Shown here: in pieces, positions 605-60,993 of the stretch
How the letters are laid out: every line of letters begins with the position of its first letter
Position numbering within the stretch: position 1 is the first letter of the stretch
Assembly (NCBI GenBank): GCA_963822405.1
Contig: CAWGHH010000002.1
Location: forward strand, 23,569-87,568
DNA: 64,000 nt
Origin: Candidatus Uhrbacteria bacterium
GTDB taxonomy: Bacteria; Patescibacteriota; Patescibacteriia; UBA9934
Reading direction: 5' to 3'
Program-made: the position numbers and the translations under genes
Notes under the pieces: model-generated
What the model saw: only the letters and a program-made list of their open reading frames with translations
What the model was told of the DNA's origin: nothing
The model's database searches: none

Positions 605-1042
605 TTAGGATTCGTAACGTTTTTGATCGTACGGGTCTGGCGTACGGCGACCATCGATCATCTCAATGATCTCGTAGGTGTATGTGACATGTTGCTGACA
701 GATGCAGGAACATTGAGGGGTTTCCTTTGTCGGCATATCCACACCCTTCTCGCGGAGTTCGTCCAACGTCGGGGGATACTCTTGCGTCCCCGACCAGATA
801 TTGTTGAGACCGTGTCTTTTTTTTGGTCCGTCGGTGGTTGGTATTTCTTGCTTTTCGGTGTCAGGAACCCAGCGATGGACGTAGAGTCGAAACTCGCGCA
901 TATGGCCTCCATGTCTAGGCGAAGACGTTCTCATGAAAGTCGCTTTCTGTAAAGGCAAAGTACCCTCTTTACTCTTAGGCCAGTTAGCTCTAAACTCTGA
1001 ACACTTATGTTCAAAGCGGTCGAGGCGCCCTTGTCGGGACAT
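605..1042 (-). CDS. doubtful hypothetical protein (145 aa, hydrophilic, C-terminal Cys cluster)
   Basis: Six-frame ORF only; no recognisable motif. It lies in the ORF-poor, hairpin-rich 1-kb leader and would overlap the metK start by 36 nt. Confidence 0.2.
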   Translation of the reverse strand: MSRQGRLDRFEHKCSEFRANWPKSKEGTLPLQKATFMRTSSPRHGGHMREFRLYVHRWVPDTEKQEIPTTDGPKKRHGLNNIWSGTQEYPPTLDELREKGVDMPTKETPQCSCICQQHVTYTYEIIEMIDGRRTPDPYDQKRYES

Positions 1043-2068
1043 CCTGATAAAATCTGCGATATTTTGGTCGAATCTATTGTCGACGAATATTTGCGTCGAG
1101 ATCCGTTGTCCAGACTCGACATCCAGGCGCTTGGCAGTAATGGCATGGTGATGATGGGCGGAATGGCAGATTCAAAGGCAGATTTTGATGTGGCGGAGGT
1201 TGCCAGAAGAGCCTACGAGGCCATTGGCTACAAAGATAGTTTGGAATTTTTTGTAAACCTGGAGAAGCCGTCGGTGAACGGCCCCGCCCCGTCAACGTAC
1301 GGACTTGGCGACGCCAAGTCCCTACAACGGGGCGGGGGAGCTCAGGGCACGGCTATTATTTACGGCTACGCTACTAAAGAGACGCGCGAACTTCTTCCTC
1401 TTCCGGTGGTTCTCGTCCATGCGCTGGCTCGACGGATCGACGATTTGCGACAAGGCGAACCGCGGTTTGCTTGGTTGAAGCCTGACGGAAAAATTCAGTT
1501 AGTCATGGACGGAAAAAATATTGAACACGTAACCGTTATTGCCGAGCATGACGTGAACATGGACGTGTCACAGGTACAGGCGTTGTTGCTTGAGCACGCA
1601 GTTGCGCCGGTTCTTGGAAATGTTGACGGTGTAAAATTATTTATCAATCCAAGTGGTCCGTTTACAAATGGTGGTTTCACTTTGAACGCCGGTGTTTCCG
1701 GTCGAAAAGCCTTAGCCGATTCTTACGGCGGACTCCTCCCACACGGTGGTGTTGCGCTTGCCGGTAAGGATCCGCTGAAGCCCGCCCGCGCCGGTACATA
1801 CATGTCGCGTTATGCTGCGCGCGAGTTAGTGAAAGAAGGTTTGGCGAGCAACGTCCTTGTTCATGCAGTTTACGCTGTTGGTCTCGCTGATCCCGTTTTA
1901 CTTTCTGCTCGCGCTGGTGACGGAACCGATTTATCGAGCATCGTCAAAGAGCGTTTCGACTTCCGCCCCGAAGCAATCGTTGAGCGTTTTAATCTGCGCC
2001 GACCTTTTTACGCATCGTGCGCCACGTACGGAATGTTCGGCCGCGATGGAGTGCCGTGGGAGGAGTAA
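1007..2068 (+). CDS. metK: S-adenosylmethionine synthetase
   Basis: N-terminal GHPDKICD motif and C-terminal ATYGMFGR; 353 aa, typical MetK length and architecture. Confidence 0.92.
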   Translation: MFKAVEAPLSGHPDKICDILVESIVDEYLRRDPLSRLDIQALGSNGMVMMGGMADSKADFDVAEVARRAYEAIGYKDSLEFFVNLEKPSVNGPAPSTYGLGDAKSLQRGGGAQGTAIIYGYATKETRELLPLPVVLVHALARRIDDLRQGEPRFAWLKPDGKIQLVMDGKNIEHVTVIAEHDVNMDVSQVQALLLEHAVAPVLGNVDGVKLFINPSGPFTNGGFTLNAGVSGRKALADSYGGLLPHGGVALAGKDPLKPARAGTYMSRYAARELVKEGLASNVLVHAVYAVGLADPVLLSARAGDGTDLSSIVKERFDFRPEAIVERFNLRRPFYASCATYGMFGRDGVPWEE

Positions 2069-4527: not shown

Positions 4528-5196
4528 ATGCGTCTTGCGCCCGTTGCTCTTGTTGTTCTTCTCTTGACTACAGTTGGCGCTGGTTGTACGAATCAGGCTC
4601 CAGCTGAGTCAGTTTCTCCTTCCACAGCCGTGAAAGGAGTAAGTGATCCTGCGGAGTCTTTTTCGAACCAACCAACAACCACACCTATGGCCACCTATAC
4701 CTACCAGGGACAGCTTCCAGAGAGTGAGATTACCAATAAAGTTGTGCGCATTACTACTGAGAAGGGTGATATTGTAATTGCGCTCTATCCAGACACTGCG
4801 CCACTAACGGTTTCAAACTTTGTTTCTTTGGCTGGCAAAGGTTTTTATGACGGTACTATTTTTCATCGCATCATTAAAGACTTCATGATCCAGGGTGGTG
4901 ATCCAACGGGCACAGGCATGGGTGGTCCAGGATATCAGTTTAAGGATGAGCTGAAGGATAAGCACACTTATGTTCGAGGCACAGTGGCCATGGCTAACTC
5001 GGGTCCGGATACAAACGGTAGCCAGTTCTTCATTATGCACGCTGACGTTCCATTGCCACACGCTTACTCTATTTTTGGAGAAGTTATTTCCGGGATGGAC
5101 GTAGTTGACGCTCTCGCTTCTACCACCGTAGACGGCAGTGATCGTCCACTCAAGGAACAGAAGATGACTAAGGTGACAGTTGAGGACGCAAAATGA
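4528..5196 (+). CDS. ppiB: cyclophilin-type peptidyl-prolyl cis-trans isomerase, lipoprotein
   Basis: [15 protein letters not shown]...[14 protein letters not shown] cyclophilin core. N-terminal signal peptide with lipobox VGAGC. Confidence 0.88.
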
Positions 5197-6602
5197 AATC
5201 AATAACGCAAAAACATTTCTACCAGTATCTCAAGTGTCCGTCATGGATCGCTCATGACGCTAAGGAAGCCAGACTTGAGAACAAGCTAAAAGACCGTCTG
5301 CAGCAGGACGGTCTTTTGTCGTCACATGAAAAGGAATTATTGAAGGGTCGCGACGTAATTGACGTCGGGGTCGACCCATGCGTCGACCCTGGCCACGGCG
5401 ACGTCGAAGAATTATTCGCGCGTACGCTTGAAGAAATGAAAAAAGGGACGCCTACTATTTATGGGGGAGTTCTGGTTCATGGTCGATTTGTGGCCGAACC
5501 GGATTTGCTTGAACGCGTGGAAGGGAAGTCAAAGCTTGGCAAATATTATTACGTAGCTTGTGACATAAAGCGATCAAGTAGGCTCAAAGAAGAATACAGA
5601 CTACAGGGCTGTTTTTACGCCGAACTTTTGAATTTGATTCAGGGCACTCGACCACTCCAAGGCTACATCATGCATCCTAATAAGGAGGTCGAGGCTTACT
5701 TGCTTGAGGAGACTGCGGTGAAATACCGGCTTACGCTTGATGCCATTGAGCGAATAATGGACGGGGAAGAGGAGCCTCATTTTTTGACCAGCGATTGTAA
5801 ACAGTCGCCATGGTTTTCTATTTGTAAGCAAGGCGCTATTGAATGTGACTCGCTGTCTAGACTGAATAGAATTTGGCGCAGTGAAGTTAGAATATTTGAA
5901 GAAGCTGGATTTAAAACTGTCACAGATTTTGCTAGACAAAATCCTGACCTAATTGCCGCGCGTACTTCTGGAATCACTAGGGACAGAATAGACTTTTTAC
6001 ATCTGCAGGCGCGAGCATTACTCGAAAACAGATTTCTCAAAGTCGGCTCGGTTGATCTGCCCGAGAGCGATCTCATTCTTGTGGTCGATATCGAAAGCGA
6101 TCCGTTGCGCGACGTTCACTATTTGTTTGGCGTACTCGAAAAAGGTGACGGCATAGATGTCTATCATTCTTTCTTAGCGAAAGACCCGAAAGACGAGCGC
6201 CGAGCTTGGGAAGACTTCATTGCTTTCATGAAGAATTATCCTGGCGTGCCAATTTATCATTACGGTTGGAGCGAGCAAGCTACATTTAAGGAGCTTGGCG
6301 AAAAATATGCCACGCCAATTGAAACGCTTGTCATGCTTGAAGAGCAGGGTGTTGATCTATTAATTCGGTTACGCGAAGCAGTTGTCTTTCCGTTGTCTTT
6401 CTATTCGCTCAAAGACATTGCGCAGTTTCTAGGTTTCAAATGGAGACATGCAGATGCCTCTGGTCTTAACTCCGTTCTCTGGTTTAACGAGTGGCTGACA
6501 AAGAAGGACGAGTCTGCACTTAAAGACATCATCGAGTACAATGAAGACGACGTCCGTGCGACTCTCGTTTTGATCGAATGGGCACAAAAAAACCTGAAGT
6601 AG
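5193..6602 (+). CDS. RecB-like nuclease, TM0106 family (RNase H-like C-terminal domain)
   Basis: 469 aa; C-terminal [11 protein letters not shown]...[17 protein letters not shown] exonuclease-like motifs. Carries one in-frame family-A palindromic repeat, translated as [10 protein letters not shown]. Confidence 0.55.
5367..5390. repeat. palindromic repeat family A, copy A1 (GGGGTCGAC-CCATGC-GTCGACCC), in-frame inside the nuclease CDS
   Basis: Perfect 8-9 bp inverted arms around a 6-nt spacer; same unit as 6603, 27827 and 28487. Confidence 0.85.
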
Positions 6603-6624
6603 TGGTCGACCCATGCGTCGACCA
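6603..6624. repeat. palindromic repeat family A, copy A2 (TGGTCGAC-CCATGC-GTCGACCA), intergenic
   Basis: Begins 1 nt after the nuclease stop codon and 9 nt before the next start; the hairpin could also act as a terminator. Confidence 0.85.
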
Positions 6625-6632
6625 AATCTCTT

Positions 6633-7442
6633 ATGCGAACACGCCCTCTCACTTGGAAATCTTTCTGGCCTCTTTTCCTAATTTTGATCATCGCTGGCGT
6701 CCTCAAGATCAAGACGCATTTTTCGCAACCAGTCGTGCCAACGGCTACTGTGCCGGCGGTGACGCATGAAGAAATTGTCGAGGTGCCAACCACCCCGACC
6801 GAAAGCGCGGGAGTGCCCGCGCCTGCAACCTCCCCCCAGCCCCCTCCTTCTGAAGGAGGGGGAGTAGGCGAGCATCCTGCCGAGTTCAACCTCGCCGTTC
6901 CGTTTTCATCACAGGCGCCGTTCATGAAATGGGACGCGTATCATGAGGAGTCATGTGAGGAGGCGTCGATTTTGATGACGCTCGAGTTTTATAAAGGCGC
7001 GAAGTCTGTTGATCCACAATTTGCCGACGACGAATATTTGAAAATAACAACGCTTGAAGATTCACTTGGTTATGGCTTGAGCATGACTGCCGAACAGACA
7101 GTCGACATCATTCAAAAGTACTCCGACTACTCGGCGCGCGTGATTGAGAATCCAACCGTCGATCAACTCAAAGAACTTCTAGTTAAGGGCGAGCCGATCA
7201 TCATTCCCGCCGCTGGTCGCAAGCTCGGCAATCCGTTCTTCACTGGTATTGGTCCGCTCTATCACATGCTCGTTATTCGTGGCTACACAAAAGACGGCAA
7301 GTTCATCACAAACGACCCCGGCACCCGCCACGGCGAAAACTACACCTACGACGCCTCCGTCCTCATGAACGCCATCGGCGACTGGAACAACGGCGACCCC
7401 GAACACGGCGCAAAACGCGTTGTGATTATTGAGTCAAAATAG
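6633..7442 (+). CDS. peptidase C39-like domain protein, membrane-anchored with Pro/Thr-rich linker
   Basis: N-terminal TM segment; C-terminal domain resembles the recalled C39-like/YvpB family. The linker carries the family-B palindrome, translated as SPQPPPSEGGGVGEHP. Confidence 0.5.
   Translation: MRTRPLTWKSFWPLFLILIIAGVLKIKTHFSQPVVPTATVPAVTHEEIVEVPTTPTESAGVPAPATSPQPPPSEGGGVGEHPAEFNLAVPFSSQAPFMKWDAYHEESCEEASILMTLEFYKGAKSVDPQFADDEYLKITTLEDSLGYGLSMTAEQTVDIIQKYSDYSARVIENPTVDQLKELLVKGEPIIIPAAGRKLGNPFFTGIGPLYHMLVIRGYTKDGKFITNDPGTRHGENYTYDASVLMNAIGDWNNGDPEHGAKRVVIIESK
6841..6861. repeat. palindromic repeat family B, copy B4 (CCCCTCCTTC-T-GAAGGAGGGG), in-frame in the peptidase linker
   Basis: 21-bp perfect palindrome; extended similarity to copy B5 covers 6832-6873. 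Confidence 0.8.
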
Positions 7443-9802: not shown

Positions 9803-10933
9803 GTGTCCAACTTATTTTCACAATTAAAGAGTTTGAAAAATAACCCCCAAGCTGGGGCTCTTTCTCTATCTGAGCATGAGACGGCTAAGGCTCGTCTCCT
9901 TTCCCGCGTGAGTGCAGACCTGCCAGCAGGCAATGAATCCAAGTCTTATGTTTCCTGGTATGTCAGTTCTTTCATTTCTAAGCCAGTGACCGTTGGCGTA
10001 GCGGTAGTGACAATTTTTACGGGAAGTTTGTCTACGGTAAGCGCTGCGTCTTCCAGTATTCCTGGCGATACCTTATATACGGTGAAGCGCATTACAGAAC
10101 AGGCACAGCTAAAACTGGCCTCACTAGACCGTCGAGCGATCCTTCACACGGAGTTCGCAGAACGCCGGTTGCGGGAGGCAGTCGAACTGCGGTCAGCTGA
10201 CACGGTTGACTCAGCTCATCAGACACTCGCTAAAACAGCCATGGTTGAGTATGCCTCAGAATTATTGCAAGCCTCGGCTGATCTGAAAAACTTGAAGAAC
10301 AATGTTGGTTCCTCGGCAGCTCTCGCAGTTGTCACAGATGTCCAGAACAAGATTGATTCAATGAAGGCGGTGATTGAGGAAACGGCTTCCACTAACTCTA
10401 CTTCAGCTGCTGGCACAGAAACTGTTGACGCCAAGCAAGCAGTAAAAGAAACCCAGGAGGTTGCTACCACGGTTGCGGTAGACGTACATGAGCAAGAAGC
10501 CACTGATAAATCTAGCCAAGAATTAAAGGCGATGTTTACAAAAGAACTTGGTTCTATAGAAGCCAGGCAGACCTTTGACGAACATAGACTGCAAACTATT
10601 GAAAAGAACGTGATCGGAAATGAGATGTTTGAGGGCGTGGCGGGAATTCCAGACAGTGATGATCTAAAAAGACTGAACTACGTTATTAAGCAAACCAAGC
10701 TCCAGATTCCAGAAGCCATGAATGGCTTTGCCGCTGGGGGATACAGAACAGCCTTCGCCACACTTCAAGGAGTAGACCAAGAACTGCTGACACTTGAAGC
10801 AAAGATTGCTGAGGTAGAAATCCTGATCATGCAAACTAGAGACGCTTCTGAGAAAGCGGGGTTAGAAACCCCGCCTTCCGAAACGCCGACATCCGATCTG
10901 GAAACCCCGCCTTCTGCGGCGCCAATGCCATAG
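9803..10933 (+). CDS. putative anti-sigma factor-like membrane protein (DUF5667-like, coiled-coil)
   Basis: Immediately downstream of the ECF sigma; one TM segment (VTVGVAVVTIFTG), then a long coiled-coil region. The C-terminal ETPPSETPTSDLETPPS tail is encoded by a GC palindrome. Confidence 0.5.
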   Translation: MSNLFSQLKSLKNNPQAGALSLSEHETAKARLLSRVSADLPAGNESKSYVSWYVSSFISKPVTVGVAVVTIFTGSLSTVSAASSSIPGDTLYTVKRITEQAQLKLASLDRRAILHTEFAERRLREAVELRSADTVDSAHQTLAKTAMVEYASELLQASADLKNLKNNVGSSAALAVVTDVQNKIDSMKAVIEETASTNSTSAAGTETVDAKQAVKETQEVATTVAVDVHEQEATDKSSQELKAMFTKELGSIEARQTFDEHRLQTIEKNVIGNEMFEGVAGIPDSDDLKRLNYVIKQTKLQIPEAMNGFAAGGYRTAFATLQGVDQELLTLEAKIAEVEILIMQTRDASEKAGLETPPSETPTSDLETPPSAAPMP

Positions 10934-16916: not shown

Positions 16917-19397
16917 GTGAAAAACAGCATTCTATTGTTCGTGTTCCTGACCGCGTGCATTTTCCCCCATGAACCATTGGTGGATGCGGATGGGGACGGT
17001 TATTGGGATTTTGAGGACTGTAATGACTCGGATGCGTCGATTAACCCCGGCGCGGAAGACATTATGTGCGAGGAGGTTGATCGCAACTGTGACGAGAACG
17101 TGGCGTACCCGCGCAATAGCACGTTCACGGACGCTGATGGTGATGGATTCGGTGACCCCGAAGCCTACATCGATCCATGTGCTGCCGTTCAGGGGGTCGA
17201 CAACCGCGACGATTGCAACGACGCGGATCCGGAGATTCATCCCGAACTTGAAGATCCGGCCGACGGAGTCGACAACGACTGCGACGGTGAGGTTGACGAG
17301 GACGCAGTGGTCGACGAAGACCTGGACGACGACGGTTACGGTGTGGACGACTGTGACGACACGAACGCGGGCATCAATCCCGATGCGGAGGAAATCTGCG
17401 ACGGGGTCGACAACGACTGTAACGGTTTGGTTGACGATGACGATACCGGTGTGGCCAGTCAGGCCACTTGGTACGTTGACGTTGACCATGACGGTTACGG
17501 GACGAGCGTGTCAGTCCTGGCTTGTGAAGAGCTGTCTGGCTACTCGGCCGACAACGGGGATTGCAATGACGAGAATTCGGACATTCACCCCGGGGCTGAT
17601 GAGTGGGACTGCTTGGATGTCACGGACTACAACTGTGACGGTCAAACGGGTTACACCGACGCTGACCTGGACTGCAGTCCTGCCTGTGAGGACTGTAACG
17701 ACCAGGACAAGAATTCCTATCCCGGCGCGTCAGAGGTTTGTGATAACGCCGACAACGATTGCAACAACATCGTGGACGATCCTGGCACGGTCACTGGCCA
17801 GAGTCCGTTCTACGCAGACCTTGATCATGACAGCTACGGAGACTTGAACTCTTTTGTGCTGGCTTGTTCTGTGCCAAACGGGTACACGGGCGACTCGACC
17901 GACTGCGATGACGGGAAAACACTCGTGCATCCAGGCGGCGTAGAGGTGTGTGACTCGAACAGCGTAGACGAAGACTGTGACGGAACAGCGAACGACGCTG
18001 ATAGTTCCGTGACCGGTAAATCTACGTTCAATAAAGATGTGGACGGTGATGGGTACGGCGGAGTGCTGACCATCGCCGCGTGCGTTGCGCCTCCGGGTTA
18101 TGTTGCCTTGATTGGCGACTGTGATGACTCGAGCGTTGCGTATCACCCGGGTGCACCCGAAGCTAGTTGTACAGATTCGCATGATTACAACTGTGACGGC
18201 GTAACTGGATATGTTGATCAAGACGGAGACGGCTCTCCGGCTTGCGAAGACTGCAACGACAACAACCCCAGCATTCATACCGGCGCCACAGAATTGTGCA
18301 ACGGTGTGGATGATAACTGTAACGGAACCGTAGACGGTTCAACTGAGGCCACGAATACAAATACTTACTACTTGGACGCAGATGGTGACACGTTCGGGAA
18401 ACTGAGTGCGACCACTAAGGCTTGTTCGTTACCGTCTGGCTACTCGTCGAATTCAACGGACTGTGATGACTCGAAAGTTGGGGTTAATCCCTCAGCGGTC
18501 GAAGTCTGCAACAGTATCGACGACAACTGTAACGGCCTGGCGGACGACGCCGACCCTGGCGTAACTGGTCGCGCTACGTACTATCGTGATGCGGACGGGG
18601 ACACTTTCGGGAGTTCGTCGACTACCAAGCTTGGTTGCGTTCAGCCTCCCGGTTACGTAGTCAGTTCGACTGACTGCAACGACGTCGTCAGCGCAATCAA
18701 TCCGAGCGCAGTTGAAATCTGCGACGTGAAAGACAACGACTGCGACGGCTTCGTTGATGACCAAGACCCGTCCATCACCGGCCAGACCAAGTGGTACGTG
18801 GATACGGATGGTGACGGTTACGGGAATCCGAACTCGTCGAAGCTCGTCTGTTCGCAACCGGCTAACTACGTCGTCAGCTCGACGGACTGCGATGACGCAA
18901 AGTCGGCCGTCAATCCGAGCGCGGTTGAGATCTGCGACGGGATAGACAACAACTGCGTTGGCGGCATTGACGACGGTCTAGCTACCAGTATTTGGTACGC
19001 CGACGTAGATGGTGACGGTTATCGGAATGTGAGTTCGTCGGTCACGGCGTGCGCTCGGCCTGCGGGCTATGTAGCGTCAACCGCCGGAGCGGATTGCGAT
19101 GACACAAACTCGCACGCTCAGACTACGGTTGGACCGGAGGTTTGCGACGGCTTCGACAATAACTGCGATGGTAATATCGACGAAACGTTCGGGACGCAGC
19201 CTTGGTACCCGGATACGGACGGCGATATGTACGGCCTGTTGTCGGGCATGGTTCGTAGCTGTTACCAGCTGCCTGGCTACGTTGACAACAAGTACGACTG
19301 CGACGACACGCGCAGTTATGTCCATCCGTCAGCGCAGGAGCTGTGCAACGGGATTGATGACAACTGCAACGTAACCGTTGACGAGAACTGCATTTGA
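16917..19397 (+). CDS. lipoprotein with about 17 tandem MopE-like Cys/Asp-rich putative metal-binding repeats
   Basis: GTG start; lipobox LTAC. The unit ...DCDDxxxxxxPGAxExCDGxDNDCDGxxDD and WYxDxDGDGYG recurs about every 70 aa. About 12% Asp and 8% Cys. Confidence 0.7.
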   Translation: MKNSILLFVFLTACIFPHEPLVDADGDGYWDFEDCNDSDASINPGAEDIMCEEVDRNCDENVAYPRNSTFTDADGDGFGDPEAYIDPCAAVQGVDNRDDCNDADPEIHPELEDPADGVDNDCDGEVDEDAVVDEDLDDDGYGVDDCDDTNAGINPDAEEICDGVDNDCNGLVDDDDTGVASQATWYVDVDHDGYGTSVSVLACEELSGYSADNGDCNDENSDIHPGADEWDCLDVTDYNCDGQTGYTDADLDCSPACEDCNDQDKNSYPGASEVCDNADNDCNNIVDDPGTVTGQSPFYADLDHDSYGDLNSFVLACSVPNGYTGDSTDCDDGKTLVHPGGVEVCDSNSVDEDCDGTANDADSSVTGKSTFNKDVDGDGYGGVLTIAACVAPPGYVALIGDCDDSSVAYHPGAPEASCTDSHDYNCDGVTGYVDQDGDGSPACEDCNDNNPSIHTGATELCNGVDDNCNGTVDGSTEATNTNTYYLDADGDTFGKLSATTKACSLPSGYSSNSTDCDDSKVGVNPSAVEVCNSIDDNCNGLADDADPGVTGRATYYRDADGDTFGSSSTTKLGCVQPPGYVVSSTDCNDVVSAINPSAVEICDVKDNDCDGFVDDQDPSITGQTKWYVDTDGDGYGNPNSSKLVCSQPANYVVSSTDCDDAKSAVNPSAVEICDGIDNNCVGGIDDGLATSIWYADVDGDGYRNVSSSVTACARPAGYVASTAGADCDDTNSHAQTTVGPEVCDGFDNNCDGNIDETFGTQPWYPDTDGDMYGLLSGMVRSCYQLPGYVDNKYDCDDTRSYVHPSAQELCNGIDDNCNVTVDENCI

Positions 19398-24351: not shown

Positions 24352-24374
24352 CCCCCTCCACTTCGTGGAGGGGG
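24352..24374. repeat. palindromic repeat family B, copy B5 (CCCCCTCCAC-TTC-GTGGAGGGGG), intergenic
   Basis: 10-bp perfect arms; the flanks 24341-24382 resemble copy B4. Lies between the DUF2304 stop and the GT4 ATG at 24392. Confidence 0.8.
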
Positions 24375-26730: not shown

Positions 26731-28695
26731 TTACTCAAACACCATCACTGTCACCTCGTGGTCGCCGAAGATCCAGGATGTGTCCGTGATGGTTTTTGAT
26801 TGTTCGATGACACGTTTGGAATCCCACCAATAATCGTCCATGACAAAGAAGACGAGCTGTGCGCCGGTGAGTGTGCGAGCTTGATCAACGGTTTCTTTGG
26901 TTGGTGCTTTGGCCATGTCGAGATAAAGCTGATAAAGGGGGCCACCGGTCGGGATAGGATAGAAATAGATATCGTCGTGATAATATTTTTTGAAACCGAG
27001 TTTTGCAATTGCGGCAGATGATGTTGCTTGGTTTGCAAGGACAACGTAATCGCGTCCCGCCGCATATTTATCAATGGCCGCCACCGCGTCAAAGTCAGCT
27101 TGCGTCACATTGAACCCCGCGGACGATGCATACGCGTCATACCGCGGGTACGCGCCATACACGGTCGACACGAACACGACGCCGATGACGACAATGGCAA
27201 ACGCGCCCCGCGCGTTGTAAGGGCCGACTTCTATGTCGGCCCCTCTCTCGATCGCATGTGGAATGTATGGCGTCAGGAACAACACCGTCAGGGTCAGCAT
27301 TCTGGCCGCAAAATCCGTCCGTTCATACGAAATCAAAAACGGGAAATCAAAGAACAACCCGAGGATAAGGAAATTCGAAAACGCAATCCCCGCACAAATC
27401 AACGGGACGAATTGTCGTAGGGGCCGACTTCTATGTCGGCCCTCTTGGAGCATCCGCCACGCCCCCACAATCCCCAAAACAACGGTCACGATAAATATAT
27501 TCCCGATGATCAGATACGCCGTATCACCCCACGCATTAAAATGCGTTCCGACAAATGCGGTTAACGGCAGAGCGGTCAGGTCGTGGATGGTCGGCAGGTG
27601 CAATCCAATCGGCATGTGCGCCTTCATGGATTGCACGATAAATGCCGCCGGCAATGCAACGGCCGATGCGATTGCGACGATGATCGTCGCGGCTGTAAGG
27701 GTCGACTTCGATGTCGACCCTCTCTCCGCCACGTACATCATCCCCACGAAAAACACCGCCGGCAACCCCGCAATCGGATGTGCACATAGCGCCGCGAGTG
27801 CGAAAATACCCGTGATCATCGTGGTAGGGGTCGACCCATGCGTCGACCCATCCGGATCCGCGCGTGTCGTGCCCAACAACACCGCCATCGCCGTAAACAC
27901 AAACGCCAACGCTTGTGGGGTGGTCTGCACGAACGCGGCGATAGGCAGAACCAACAACATCGCCGCCGTAAGGGTCGACTTCGATGTCGACCCTTGATTG
28001 GTCCGCATGAGCACCGCCGCCGGAATCAACGTCGCCGCCAAAAGTGGCACGAGGTACACGTCCACGAGCATTAGTGGCAGGTGGAGCACCTTCAGCGCGA
28101 ACAATTCGATCACATATTCGCCAATGTAGTAGAGGGGTTTCGGGGTGATCGTTCCAAAGTCGGCAATATGTTGGATGGTTGCGCGATGCAAGAATGGATC
28201 GAACCCATACCCAAGCGGATATACCGTCGCTACAAATGACAACGCCGAGAACAGGGTCATGACAATCACGCCGAAGGCCATCGCGGTTGTAAGGGTCGAC
28301 TTCAATGTCGACCCTCTCTTCATCATCACCGCCGCACACACCGTTGGTATGAACAGCCACACCAGGTTGGCCGGCGAAATCACCAACCACGGCGAGCGTA
28401 CCGATTCGAGAATCGGATGAGTGAGGATAGCGTGCCACCACGCGCCGAGGGACGCGACTGCAATTACCGCGAGGAAAACCGCTGTAGGGGTCGACCCCCG
28501 CGTCGACCCTCGTTGAACTGTGACCAAGGGAAAGGATTTTGATAGCAAGAAAATCGCCCCGATCGCCATAGCTGCGCAGACAATCAGTCCGACAGTTGTC
28601 ACATTCATGACATAATAGAGAAAAGTAGCCAGAATGCTATAAATAGCTAAACCGGCGCCAGACCAAATGATTCCTTGAAGAAAGCGATTAAACAT
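26731..28695 (-). CDS. polytopic integral membrane protein (GT-C-like?) carrying seven in-frame family-A palindromic repeat insertions
   Basis: 654 aa with more than 12 hydrophobic segments. The peptides [55 protein letters not shown] and RGADIEVGP map exactly onto repeats A9 to A3. Confidence 0.6.
   Translation of the reverse strand: MFNRFLQGIIWSGAGLAIYSILATFLYYVMNVTTVGLIVCAAMAIGAIFLLSKSFPLVTVQRGSTRGSTPTAVFLAVIAVASLGAWWHAILTHPILESVRSPWLVISPANLVWLFIPTVCAAVMMKRGSTLKSTLTTAMAFGVIVMTLFSALSFVATVYPLGYGFDPFLHRATIQHIADFGTITPKPLYYIGEYVIELFALKVLHLPLMLVDVYLVPLLAATLIPAAVLMRTNQGSTSKSTLTAAMLLVLPIAAFVQTTPQALAFVFTAMAVLLGTTRADPDGSTHGSTPTTMITGIFALAALCAHPIAGLPAVFFVGMMYVAERGSTSKSTLTAATIIVAIASAVALPAAFIVQSMKAHMPIGLHLPTIHDLTALPLTAFVGTHFNAWGDTAYLIIGNIFIVTVVLGIVGAWRMLQEGRHRSRPLRQFVPLICAGIAFSNFLILGLFFDFPFLISYERTDFAARMLTLTVLFLTPYIPHAIERGADIEVGPYNARGAFAIVVIGVVFVSTVYGAYPRYDAYASSAGFNVTQADFDAVAAIDKYAAGRDYVVLANQATSSAAIAKLGFKKYYHDDIYFYPIPTGGPLYQLYLDMAKAPTKETVDQARTLTGAQLVFFVMDDYWWDSKRVIEQSKTITDTSWIFGDHEVTVMVFE
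27221..27243. repeat. palindromic repeat family A, copy A3 (GGGCCGAC-TTCTAT-GTCGGCCC)
   Basis: GCCGAC variant of the unit; preceded by GTAA; read in-frame as GADIEVGP on the minus strand. Confidence 0.85.
27421..27442. repeat. palindromic repeat family A, copy A4 (GGGCCGAC-TTCTAT-GTCGGCCC)
   Basis: Identical core to A3 but read in a different codon phase (GRHRSRP); preceded by GTAG. Confidence 0.85.
27699..27720. repeat. palindromic repeat family A, copy A5 (GGGTCGAC-TTCGAT-GTCGACCC)
   Basis: Preceded by GTAA; translated as RGSTSKSTL. Confidence 0.85.
27827..27849. repeat. palindromic repeat family A, copy A6 (GGGGTCGAC-CCATGC-GTCGACCC)
   Basis: Identical to copy A1 at 5367; preceded by GTAG; translated as DGSTHGSTP. 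Confidence 0.85.
27972..27993. repeat. palindromic repeat family A, copy A7 (GGGTCGAC-TTCGAT-GTCGACCC)
   Basis: Identical to A5; preceded by GTAA; translated as QGSTSKSTL. Confidence 0.85.
28293..28314. repeat. palindromic repeat family A, copy A8 (GGGTCGAC-TTCAAT-GTCGACCC)
   Basis: Preceded by GTAA; translated as RGSTLKSTL. Confidence 0.85.
28487..28509. repeat. palindromic repeat family A, copy A9 (GGGGTCGAC-CCCCGC-GTCGACCC)
   Basis: Preceded by GTAG; translated as RGSTRGSTP. Confidence 0.85.
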
Positions 28696-59329: not shown

Positions 59330-59695
59330 ATGGCACTTGCCGTATTGGATTCGAATGCTCTAATTTACCATGTGGGTGGATTGCAGACGATTCCCGATTT
59401 GCTCACGAGCACCTATGCAGTTTCCTCGGTTATTGTTTTTGAGTTATTGCGCTTTCCTGGGATGTCAAAACAGGAAGAGTCATCTTTAATCAAGGCTATT
59501 GATTATTGTGAGATTGTAGGTGTTACTGAGGCGATTGCTTTTCGAGCGGCTTTTTTGAGTCGGATACGTCCACGTGGTAAAGCTATGGATATATTTATCG
59601 CGGCAACTGCCCTGGAATTAGACATTCCTTTGATTACGGGTAACATTAAAGACTTTAAGAATATTCCCGGTCTTCAGGTTAAGAGTGAATTTTGA
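59330..59695 (+). CDS. vapC: PIN-domain ribonuclease toxin (VapC-like)
   Basis: VLDSNALIY (Asp1), FELL (Glu), DIFIAATALELDIPLITGNIKDF (Asp3/Asp4 region); 121 aa. Confidence 0.8.
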   Translation: MALAVLDSNALIYHVGGLQTIPDLLTSTYAVSSVIVFELLRFPGMSKQEESSLIKAIDYCEIVGVTEAIAFRAAFLSRIRPRGKAMDIFIAATALELDIPLITGNIKDFKNIPGLQVKSEF

Positions 59696-60993
59696 TTATG
59701 TTGCACCAGCTTAAAAAACTTGTTCCTCGTCCGGTACTTCAGATCTATCACTTCGCCCTCGCAAAAACGGCTGAGGCTGTTTATCGGCATCCGTCGGAGA
59801 AGCTCGTCGTCATCGGCGTCACGGGGACAAACGGCAAGTCATCAACGGTTAATTTCATCGCACAGATTTTGAATAACCTCGGCGAAACTGTTGGTTATAC
59901 GTCGACTGCCGGTTTTTCGATCGCGGGGAAGGAAGTCGAGAATAAGATGAAGATGACCATGCCGGGGAGATTCTATTTGCAGAAGATCATGAGCGAGATG
60001 GTGAAGGAGAAATGCGCGTACGCTGTTATTGAAACGTCTAGTCAAGGACTCGACCAGTTCCGCCACCTCGGTATCAATTATGACGTCGCTGTTTTTACAA
60101 ACCTCACACCGGAACATATTGAAGCGCACGGAGGATTCGAAAATTACAAGAAGGCAAAAGGGAAGTTGTTCGAGCATCTGACAAATCGTCGAAAGAAACA
60201 CTTTGAAGGACATGAAGTGCCGAAGACAATTATCGTGAATGGTGACGACGAACACTCGGCGTACTTTGCATCTTTTCCGGCCGATAAACATGTGTCATTT
60301 AGTTTTACGGAAAAGGTGATTCGGGCGGGTGACGTGATTCACCCTGTCGACAAGCTACCATTACGCGCCGAGTTCGAGCAGAAGAATGCGCTGGCTGCTA
60401 TTGCCACGGTTGAGGCTCTAGGTTTCCCATTGAAGCGTGTGCTCGACGCAGCTGAGTTGCTCCGACCACTCGCTGGCCGTTTCGAAAAGATCGAGCAAGG
60501 TCAGCCTTTTGCGGTTATTGTCGACTACGCGTATGAACCTTATGCGCTCCAGGCACTATATGATGCTGTGAGTGGGCCGACATCGAAGTCGGCCCTTACC
60601 TCGAGGATCATCGGTGTACACGGTTCGGCGGGGGGAGGGCGTGATATTGCGCGTCGTCCTATCATCGGCAAACTCGCCGGTGAACACGAGGCTGTAGTGA
60701 TTGTGACGAATGAGGATCCGTACGATGAGGATCCGCGAGAGATCATTGAGGCCGTTGCGTCGGGCGCTCGCGAAGCGGGGAAGATTGAGGGAAAAGATTT
60801 GTTCTTGGTCGACGACCGCAGAGAAGCCATTGAGAAAGCGTTCGAGCTCGCCAAACCGGGTGATACTGTTTTATTAACAGGCAAAGGTTCGGAACCGGTG
60901 ATGGCTGTGGCTGGCGGAAAGAAAATTGCCTGGGATGATAGAATTGCTGCGCGAGAAATCTTAGCTCAGATGGGGTATCATAAAGCCGTATGA
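59692..60993 (+). CDS. murE: Mur ligase, MurE-like (UDP-MurNAc-L-Ala-D-Glu:diamino acid ligase)
   Basis: P-loop VIGVTGTNGKSST and the IETSSQGL motif (MurE-type E.SSHGL); 433 aa with a short N-terminal domain; 4-nt overlap with the PIN gene. Confidence 0.72.
   Translation: MIMLHQLKKLVPRPVLQIYHFALAKTAEAVYRHPSEKLVVIGVTGTNGKSSTVNFIAQILNNLGETVGYTSTAGFSIAGKEVENKMKMTMPGRFYLQKIMSEMVKEKCAYAVIETSSQGLDQFRHLGINYDVAVFTNLTPEHIEAHGGFENYKKAKGKLFEHLTNRRKKHFEGHEVPKTIIVNGDDEHSAYFASFPADKHVSFSFTEKVIRAGDVIHPVDKLPLRAEFEQKNALAAIATVEALGFPLKRVLDAAELLRPLAGRFEKIEQGQPFAVIVDYAYEPYALQALYDAVSGPTSKSALTSRIIGVHGSAGGGRDIARRPIIGKLAGEHEAVVIVTNEDPYDEDPREIIEAVASGAREAGKIEGKDLFLVDDRREAIEKAFELAKPGDTVLLTGKGSEPVMAVAGGKKIAWDDRIAAREILAQMGYHKAV

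Follow-up and report, generated by a model that had tools for sequence, protein, structure and literature searches.

In-frame hairpin repeats, probably of the GTAG-tagged REP class, in a predicted GT-C glycosyltransferase gene of Patescibacteria

The hairpin element and its copies

A 64,000-nucleotide stretch of a Candidatus Uhrbacteria genome (GenBank assembly GCA_963822405.1, contig CAWGHH010000002.1, positions 23,569 to 87,568; here called the window) carries a short palindromic element, seven copies of which lie within one intact open reading frame (ORF), 26731..28695 on the minus strand. This ORF encodes a 654-amino-acid (aa) protein with 15 predicted transmembrane (TM) helices that resembles GT-C-fold glycosyltransferases. 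A pattern search of the window for GGGYCGAC-N6-GTCGRCCC returned 10 matches, versus 0.05 expected from 100 shuffles of the window. The seven matches in the one gene, which makes up 3% of the window (binomial P = 2.8e-9), start exactly at 27221, 27421, 27699, 27828, 27972, 28293, and 28488. Directly 5' of them on the plus strand stands a tetranucleotide tag, GTAA at 27221, 27699, 27972, and 28293 and GTAG at 27421, 27828, and 28488. The first-pass annotation of this DNA had described seven in-frame hairpins in an open 654-aa membrane protein ORF, each immediately after GTAA or GTAG, and had quoted their peptides; exact matching bears out all three statements. Five of the positions that it gave were right, and two (27827 and 28487) were one base early and included the last base of the tag.

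The element measures 26 to 27 nt with its tag and consists of a perfect, GC-rich stem of 8 to 10 bp and a 6-nt loop. Every copy is predicted to fold into a stable hairpin (-16 to -22 kcal/mol; z of -2.4 to -6.6 versus shuffles). The in-gene copies, numbered S1 to S7 in helix order, fall into three subfamilies. S1 and S4 have a GTAG tag and a GC-rich loop: S1 (28484..28509, plus strand) is GTAG followed by GGGTCGAC-CCCCGC-GTCGACCC, is read on the minus strand as GSTRGSTPT, and lies in the TM2/TM3 loop, predicted to be cytoplasmic; S4 (27824..27849, plus strand; TM8/TM9 loop) is GTAG followed by GGGTCGAC-CCATGC-GTCGACCC and encodes GSTHGSTPT. S2, S3, and S5 combine a GTAA tag with the loop TTCRAT. 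S2 (28289..28314, plus strand; TM4/TM5 loop) is GGGTCGAC-TTCAAT-GTCGACCC and encodes GSTLKSTLT, and S3 (27968..27993, plus strand; TM6/TM7 loop) and S5 (27695..27720, plus strand; TM10/TM11 loop) are both GGGTCGAC-TTCGAT-GTCGACCC and encode GSTSKSTLT. S6 (27417..27442, plus strand; TM12/TM13 loop) and S7 (27217..27242, plus strand; TM14/TM15 loop) share the GGGCCGAC stem and the loop TTCTAT, both being GGGCCGAC-TTCTAT-GTCGGCCC, with the tag GTAG and the peptide GRHRSRPL in S6 and the tag GTAA and the peptide GADIEVGPY in S7. The stem changes are complementary (GGGTCGAC/GTCGACCC versus GGGCCGAC/GTCGGCCC, T-A versus C-G), and further complementary variants occur in relatives (GGGCCGAT/ATCGGCCC in the orthologous locus L002 and GGGTCGGC/GCCGACCC in L129).

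The other three copies lie elsewhere in the window. One (60574..60599, minus strand) reads GGGCCGAC-ATCGAA-GTCGGCCC followed by TTAC on the plus strand and encodes GPTSKSALT within a MurE-like ligase ORF (59692..60993, plus strand), whose loop is 5 aa longer there than in solved MurE structures. The copy at 5368 (5364..5389, plus strand) lies in an RNase_H_2/Cas4-like ORF (5193..6602, plus strand), in opposite orientation to the host gene; it encodes VGVDPCVDP and has a decayed tag, GTCG. The copy at 6603 (6599..6624, plus strand) is intergenic and consists of GTAG and TGGTCGAC-CCATGC-GTCGACCA; ORF 5193..6602 terminates at the TAG of this tag. The tag is thus GTAG in S1, S4, S6, and the copy at 6603 and GTAA in S2, S3, S5, S7, and the Mur ligase copy; the A of the GTAA variant extends the stem. 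The same RNase_H_2/Cas4-like ORF contains an 11-bp stem, AAAAGACCGTC...GACGGTCTTTT, at 5288-5317, about 50 nt upstream of the copy at 5368.

The 10 copies are spread over four loci, and relatives hold copies in neighboring genes (L003 at 8538 and L129 at 7827). All window copies are singletons, at least 128 nt apart, and nine of the 10 are inside ORFs; at a coding density of 94%, random insertion would give about the same intragenic ratio. The flanks of S2 and S5 are alike (14 of 18 proximal bases and 25 of 44 overall), whereas the similarity of flanks between other pairs is at background; a mobile unit extending to about 39 nt was rejected on these grounds. An Rfam search found three tRNAs only and no RNA family matching the element.

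The elements are DNA-level repeats and not a protein motif. S6 and S7 are an identical 22-mer read in different frames, which yields unrelated peptides, and the remaining five in-gene copies (GST..ST[LP]T) use another frame, so that all three frames are used overall. The hairpins of S4 and the copy at 5368 are identical, the copy at 6603 has the same GTCGAC core and loop, and one loop is common to S3, S5, and the Mur ligase copy. As these copies sharing a hairpin or loop are 21 to 33 kb apart, the element has dispersed between loci.

Reading of the element is constrained by its own stop codons. On the sense strand, where the order is hairpin-YTAC, the tag closes no frame; in reverse orientation, the TAA or TAG of the tag closes one. 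The loop ATAGAA closes frame 1 and the loop ATTGAA closes frame 2, and every copy occupies a frame left open by its own loop. Residues G, S, T, R, K, P, and D are abundant in the peptides that the copies encode. One predicted insert-junction peptide of the host protein is ...ERGSTSKSTLTAA....

Host protein and placement of the inserts

The host protein has 214 homologues, the closest at 60 to 71% identity, and is conserved in Patescibacteria; no Pfam domain was found in it or in any of the 214. An AlphaFold2 model made from the homologue alignment (predicted local distance difference test score, 89.7; predicted template modeling score, 0.93) has 15 TM helices and a C-terminal domain, and its top matches among solved structures are the GT-C enzymes AftA, PglB/OST, and ArnT. 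By this modeled structure, the protein is a predicted GT-C-fold glycosyltransferase. The gene belongs to a cell-envelope glycan cluster (GT4, CDP-alcohol phosphatidyltransferase, and further multi-TM proteins), and synteny is kept across the seven orthologous loci fetched. The junction of the GT-C gene with the GT4 gene downstream of it is a local hotspot of gene gain and loss: it holds a GIY-YIG gene in L003 (12037-12339) and a 302- to 303-aa ORF without a Pfam match in L004 (3278-4189) and L006 (3828-4736), and these genes are missing from the window.

Sites S1 to S7 are, by helix order, every second loop, all on the N-terminal side of the membrane and rich in K/R. GT-C topology and the positive-inside rule were used to orient the membrane sides, and because of the fold and the K/R-rich loops the insert-bearing side is predicted to be cytoplasmic. 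Each of the seven predicted cytoplasmic loops has one copy, and the rest of the gene has none; the conserved loops and the C-terminal domain are all on the outward side in the predicted topology. The inserts occupy short interhelix turns that are mostly modeled as coil, several with locally lower confidence, and S2 largely as a helix extension. Among 83 homologues, the seven insert intervals are length variable (standard deviation of 2.7 to 6.6 aa), compared with 0 to 0.9 aa for the six intervals between them. The median of these homologues has short loops without hairpins; relative to it, the window protein is longer by 7 aa at S2, S3, and S4, by 5 aa at S6, and by 2 aa at one site, and differs by about 0 at two.

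Empty sites and turnover in orthologues

Seven syntenic orthologous loci were aligned codon by codon, and 59 further orthologous loci of the candidate phyla radiation (CPR) were fetched. S2 to S5 are all empty in the closest orthologue, L001; in addition, S2 is empty in L004, L005, and L007, S4 is empty in L004, and S5 is empty in L003, L004, and L007. YTAC is present at the insertion point in none of 11 empty orthologous sites, and the tag must therefore arrive with the hairpin. The lineage specificity of S2 to S5 and the location of the inserts in predicted loops agree with the behavior of Rickettsia palindromic elements, to which the first-pass annotation had likened the copies. Of its two options for the conserved GTAR, a target preference or a part of the element, the second stands, since empty sites lack the tetranucleotide and the tag accompanies the hairpin across phyla (see below).

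In orthologues, the same loops hold other perfect GC-rich hairpins, most of them followed by [C/T/G]TAC on the sense strand. These include GGGTCGGTC-aca-GACCGACCC; GG[GA]CGGGG-cRag-CCCCG[CT]CC, with the peptide GGASPALT; and a family whose 14-bp stem extends through the tag. At S3, S4, or S5 of L003, L004, L005, and L006 there is an untagged family, GCGGGGTT-aaa-AACCCCGC, with the peptide GVKNPAF, and the S3 site is held by other hairpin families in L003, L004, and L006. The same untagged GVKNPAF family is also found in the window, at 10856-10874 in a DUF5667 ORF (9803..10933), as GCGGGGTT-aga-AACCCCGC followed by CTTC. Even in orthologues at 38 to 47% identity, hairpins map almost only to S1 to S7. 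Over 885 kb from 67 CPR loci, GC-rich perfect hairpins are five times denser in the GT-C gene than elsewhere (0.46 versus 0.089 per kb).

Some copies are decaying (S4 and S5 in L002 and S4 in L005). S6 is occupied by family A in the window and in L002 and by family C in L005 and L007, which differ from each other there by two fully compensatory base pairs. Perfect hairpins of differing sequence occupy S1, S6, and S7 in nearly every close lineage. The aligned sequences indicate that hairpin families turn over at fixed landing sites. An Uhrbacteria orthologue, P0069 (L186, 10001-12097), has much larger inserts of about 31 and 45 aa in the S2 and S6 loops. At S2 the insert forms an imperfect palindrome, about 100 nt long, with a weak folding signal (-50.8 kcal/mol; z of -2.4), and no significant structure was detected in the S6 insert (z of -1.6).

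Relationship to REPs and RAYT transposases

The first-pass annotation considered the family undescribed. This does not hold, as a GTAG head and a GC-rich 8-bp stem are the defining architecture of GTAG-tagged repetitive extragenic palindromic (REP) elements, of which intragenic copies are documented (PMC3733652). Twenty-four GTAG REP families with 6- to 9-bp stems have been defined (Di Nocera et al. 2013, PMC3733652); they comprise subfamilies with complementary stem changes and include intragenic copies, sometimes two per ORF (PMC3733652). GTAG-tagged REPs are associated with REP-associated tyrosine transposases (RAYTs, or TnpA-REP) (Nunvar 2010, PMC2817692; Messing 2012, PMC3479197).

Species-representative genomes were scanned for GTAR plus GGGYCGAC-N6-GTCGRCCC. 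Tag and stem occur together in at least 119 stretches, with Nitrospirota, Acidobacteriota, Chloroflexota, Clostridia, WOR-3, Planctomycetota, and a Halorubrum among the matches listed, in which several genomes recur and Patescibacteria do not appear. Of the copies listed, 85 of 133 are intergenic, by crude ORF calls in high-GC genomes, and loops are often near-identical across phyla. GTAG predominates strongly among the tags of the listed matches, with four GTAA noted by eye. The tag accompanies the hairpin in unrelated intergenic contexts of other phyla.

A link to a transposase was found in a Coatesbacteria metagenome-assembled genome (L039), where a family A copy forms an inverted doublet. 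A Y1_Tnp gene lies 1.2 kb away, and relatives of this gene carry the annotation "REP element-mobilizing transposase RayT". The gene is directly preceded by GTAG-GGGCGGGG..CCCCGCCC hairpins, whose stem is that of CPR family C. With a profile made from RayT matches in the database, RAYT-class Y1 genes were identified in two CPR loci, L140 and L149, with the HUH motifs NHYH and NHFH, a YIH.N motif, and palindromes of their own on both sides. The gene in L149 (3440-4260) has the same palindrome of about 40 nt (CTGGTTACCTGGTTACCGAACGGTTACCAGGTAACCAG) on either side, and the GT-C orthologue is about 150 nt away; the gene in L140 (8370-9200) is bracketed by AACTAAGTT-type hairpins. A phmmer search of the CPR DNA with approximate query sequences of Escherichia coli RAYT, IS200, and IS608 gave no match. 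A literature search found no report of REPs in Patescibacteria or of comparable loop-by-loop colonization, and an exact-sequence literature search returned irrelevant primer matches only.

Other hairpins and repeats in the window

A second type of intragenic hairpin, CCCCCTCC-loop-GGAGGGGG with 10-bp stems, occurs at 6840-6862 in a Peptidase_C39_2 gene and at 24352-24374 in a GT4 glycosyltransferase gene. It recurs in CPR loci (L001 at 5245, L003 at 14302, L004 at 6046, L129 to L131, L136, L178, and L186 at 8173), and a longer unit, attgcYtcCTCCCCC-N4-ATGGGGGAGttagaggg, is present three times in L130 and three times in L131. In MetK (ORF 1007..2068), a perfect 9-bp hairpin, GGACTTGGC-gac-GCCAAGTCC, lies between GTAC and CTAC at 1297-1325, within the flexible loop of the enzyme. 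This hairpin (at 1301) was rejected as an insertion, as the loop shows no length change relative to solved MetK structures and 64 kb of sequence should contain about one such stem by chance. A GC-rich ORF (16917-19397; 55 to 57%), whose orthologues are annotated Cu-binding_MopE, has many degenerate GTCGAC-containing repeats (17196-17360), which appear to reflect tandem repetition at the protein level and to have no relation to the REP element.

Origin and maintenance of the in-gene copies

The elements are probably GTAG-tagged REP-class hairpins that survive as open-frame inserts in length-tolerant loops. They would be nonautonomous single-hairpin repeats, mobilized as single-stranded DNA by a RAYT (HUH/Y1) transposase that recognizes the hairpin and its GTAG foot, and would insert more or less anywhere. 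In a genome that is about 94% coding, nearly every insertion would hit a gene, and the survivors would be those that keep the frame open and add 8 to 9 hydrophilic residues without harm. The seven short loops predicted to be cytoplasmic are the only length-variable parts of the protein, such that one copy would have accumulated in each, and the same loops would have been colonized by several REP families in related lineages. Decay of copies in L002 and L005 is as expected for tolerated passengers. We infer that a RAYT moves copies in this lineage and that the copies are neutral passengers rather than selected.

Several findings weigh against this interpretation. The window contains no RAYT or IS200-type gene, no RAYT flanked by family A hairpins was found in the 885 kb of related CPR DNA, and the palindromes flanking the RAYT-like genes of L140 and L149 are unrelated to family A. 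Four of the seven in-gene tags depart from the canonical GT[AG]G in being GTAA, a variant that is rare across phyla among the matches listed. The copies are singletons, unlike the dimers and clusters (bacterial interspersed mosaic elements [BIMEs]) of many REP families. Tolerance alone is insufficient for the hotspot, as no copies are present in the window's other multi-TM genes or in its other minus-strand genes, and the fivefold excess of hairpins in the GT-C gene over its flanks extends across 67 loci. The length of the core, 26 nt, is not divisible by three; with orthologous flanks that diverge by 30 to 40%, the inserted unit may be 24 or 27 nt. Tagged hairpins in the GT-C gene all have the same orientation, which replication or transcription may set (7 of 7, P of ~0.03, against four sense and two antisense among six informative copies outside the hotspot gene). 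Finally, perfect stems persist at S1, S6, and S7, with compensatory pairs, which could reflect selection for structure.

The strength of the hotspot, the uniform orientation, and the perfect stems at S1, S6, and S7 keep two alternatives alive. The hairpins may be selected functional parts of the gene at the RNA or DNA level, i.e., domesticated REPs whose ancestry is secondary, with proposed roles in pacing translation or membrane insertion of TM pairs, mRNA protection, or host factor binding. The regularity of one hairpin in all seven predicted cytoplasmic loops and none elsewhere in the gene would fit such a function, as would the hairpin density across the CPR loci (distant orthologues included), the perfect stems of differing sequence with compensatory changes in most close lineages, and the single orientation of these stable stems relative to the mRNA. 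Nevertheless, this appears unlikely, as S2 to S5 are absent from close orthologues in which the protein is otherwise conserved, several copies are decaying, and the short loops of the median homologue lack hairpins. In addition, the same element occurs antisense, between genes, and in soluble enzymes, and it is an ordinary intergenic REP in other phyla; perfect stems could also be attained by family replacement, such as that of families A and C at S6. A related proposal, that REP hairpins in this Patescibacteria clade moved into coding sequence and were co-opted there, with one stem maintained per cytoplasmic-loop segment of the GT-C protein, is regarded as quite unlikely. If it were true, either selection or a cassette-like exchange of several REP families at fixed, in-frame landing sites would preserve the stems, whose role would be to set the pace of translation or of membrane insertion or to make the cytoplasmic face of the enzyme more diverse. 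Spread and persistence without a transposase, through short-homology recombination or ectopic gene conversion among loops and among genes, while hairpin-templated repair within a strand kept the palindromes perfect, would account for the extended flank similarity of S2 and S5 (about 40 nt copied with context), the identity of subfamily members within the gene (concerted evolution), the lack of a local RAYT, and the way in which families replace each other at one site without a change of frame. Most pairs of copies, however, have no flank similarity beyond chance, tag and hairpin are conserved together across phyla and near a bona fide RAYT, and conversion needs a homologous acceptor, which empty sites do not offer; this route is decidedly improbable.

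The remaining explanations fare worse against the same evidence. Five copies encode G-S-T-x-x-S-T-[LP]-T, as would be expected if selection favored a GST-rich linker and the palindrome were incidental, but the shared 22-mer of S6 and S7 encodes GRHRSRPL and GADIEVGPY, the copy at 5368 encodes VGVDPCVDP, the copy at 6603 is noncoding, and nucleotide identity is far above what the peptide needs. A protein-level motif thus has almost no likelihood and is ruled out by use of three frames and by the antisense and intergenic copies. A DNA uptake signal or restriction-modification motif would share with the element a short, overrepresented palindrome, here with two GTCGAC (SalI-type) sites, and uptake signals are often intragenic. 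Such a role is highly improbable: GTCGAC is not avoided elsewhere (42 sites, 14 of them in elements, with about 15 expected in total), giving no signal of either avoidance or enrichment as a restriction site, two of the seven copies have GCCGAC/GTCGGC instead, and clustering in one gene and REP-like behavior in phyla of unrelated biology fit it poorly.

If the copies are indeed REP-class passengers, a classic "extragenic" selfish repeat persists in a streamlined genome as short in-frame peptides where a protein can stretch. The seven occupied loops then constitute a natural map of insertion-tolerant sites in an uncharacterized but conserved CPR glycosyltransferase, and the turnover of families at the same loops provides a tractable system for asking whether REPs are purely parasitic or are kept up by processes that preserve their structure. 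For annotation, low-complexity loops of the GST, GGASPA, and GVKNPAF types in CPR proteins may be repeat derived.

Comparison with known systems

IS200/IS605-family insertion sequences (IS608 and ISDra2) and the miniature inverted-repeat transposable elements derived from them likewise pair a hairpin with a tetranucleotide for a Y1 HUH enzyme acting on single-stranded DNA, and their seamless excision would explain clean empty sites. They have two different subterminal hairpins and insert beside a preexisting target tetranucleotide, whereas the window element is a single hairpin and its empty sites lack YTAC; GTAR as an IS608-style target site is therefore ruled out.

Rickettsia palindromic elements (RPE-1 to RPE-8), to which the first-pass annotation likened the copies, are also in-frame palindromic repeats in functional genes of reduced genomes, at tolerated surface or loop sites. 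The likeness in behavior (in frame, lineage specific, and in loops) stands. RPE-1 is about 100 to 150 bp long, the short RPE-4 and RPE-6 are members of the superfamily of REPs with a CGTC tag, and the sequence families are confined to Rickettsia (Ogata et al., as cited in PMC3733652). The window element, at 26 nt, with a GTAR rather than a CGTC tag and about 8 aa per copy, has no sequence relationship to them, and membership in the RPE family is ruled out by size and tag.

GTAG-tagged REPs are the closest counterpart, although they are predominantly extragenic and frequently occur as dimers or clusters (BIMEs, or REP doublets forming hairpins [REPINs]), whereas the window elements are singletons, nine of 10 are intragenic, and seven are in one gene. 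Half of the window tags are GTAA, the host belongs to Patescibacteria, and no cognate RAYT was found in the window or in the 885 kb of related CPR DNA. The superfamily is characterized by a GC-rich stem of 5 to 13 bp with a loop, 20 to 40 nt in all, by an unpaired GT[AG]G or a mild variant of it at one end, and by a cognate RAYT gene that the REPs of the same genome flank. In both, a GTAG-type tetranucleotide stands at one foot of a GC-rich stem of 6 to 9 bp with a short loop, within a total of 20 to 40 nt. GTAG-tagged REPs are multicopy and dispersed, and the window element, with its 10 copies at four loci, may be so as well. Both form subfamilies with complementary stems and can be intragenic and in frame, and in another phylum a gene annotated as RayT lies close to copies with exactly this tag and stem. 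Both the class of element and its occasional presence within genes are already known; the novelty lies in the host phylum, in a niche that is almost wholly intragenic, and in the hotspot within a single gene, which is an extreme but not a new case of selfish DNA surviving within a protein.

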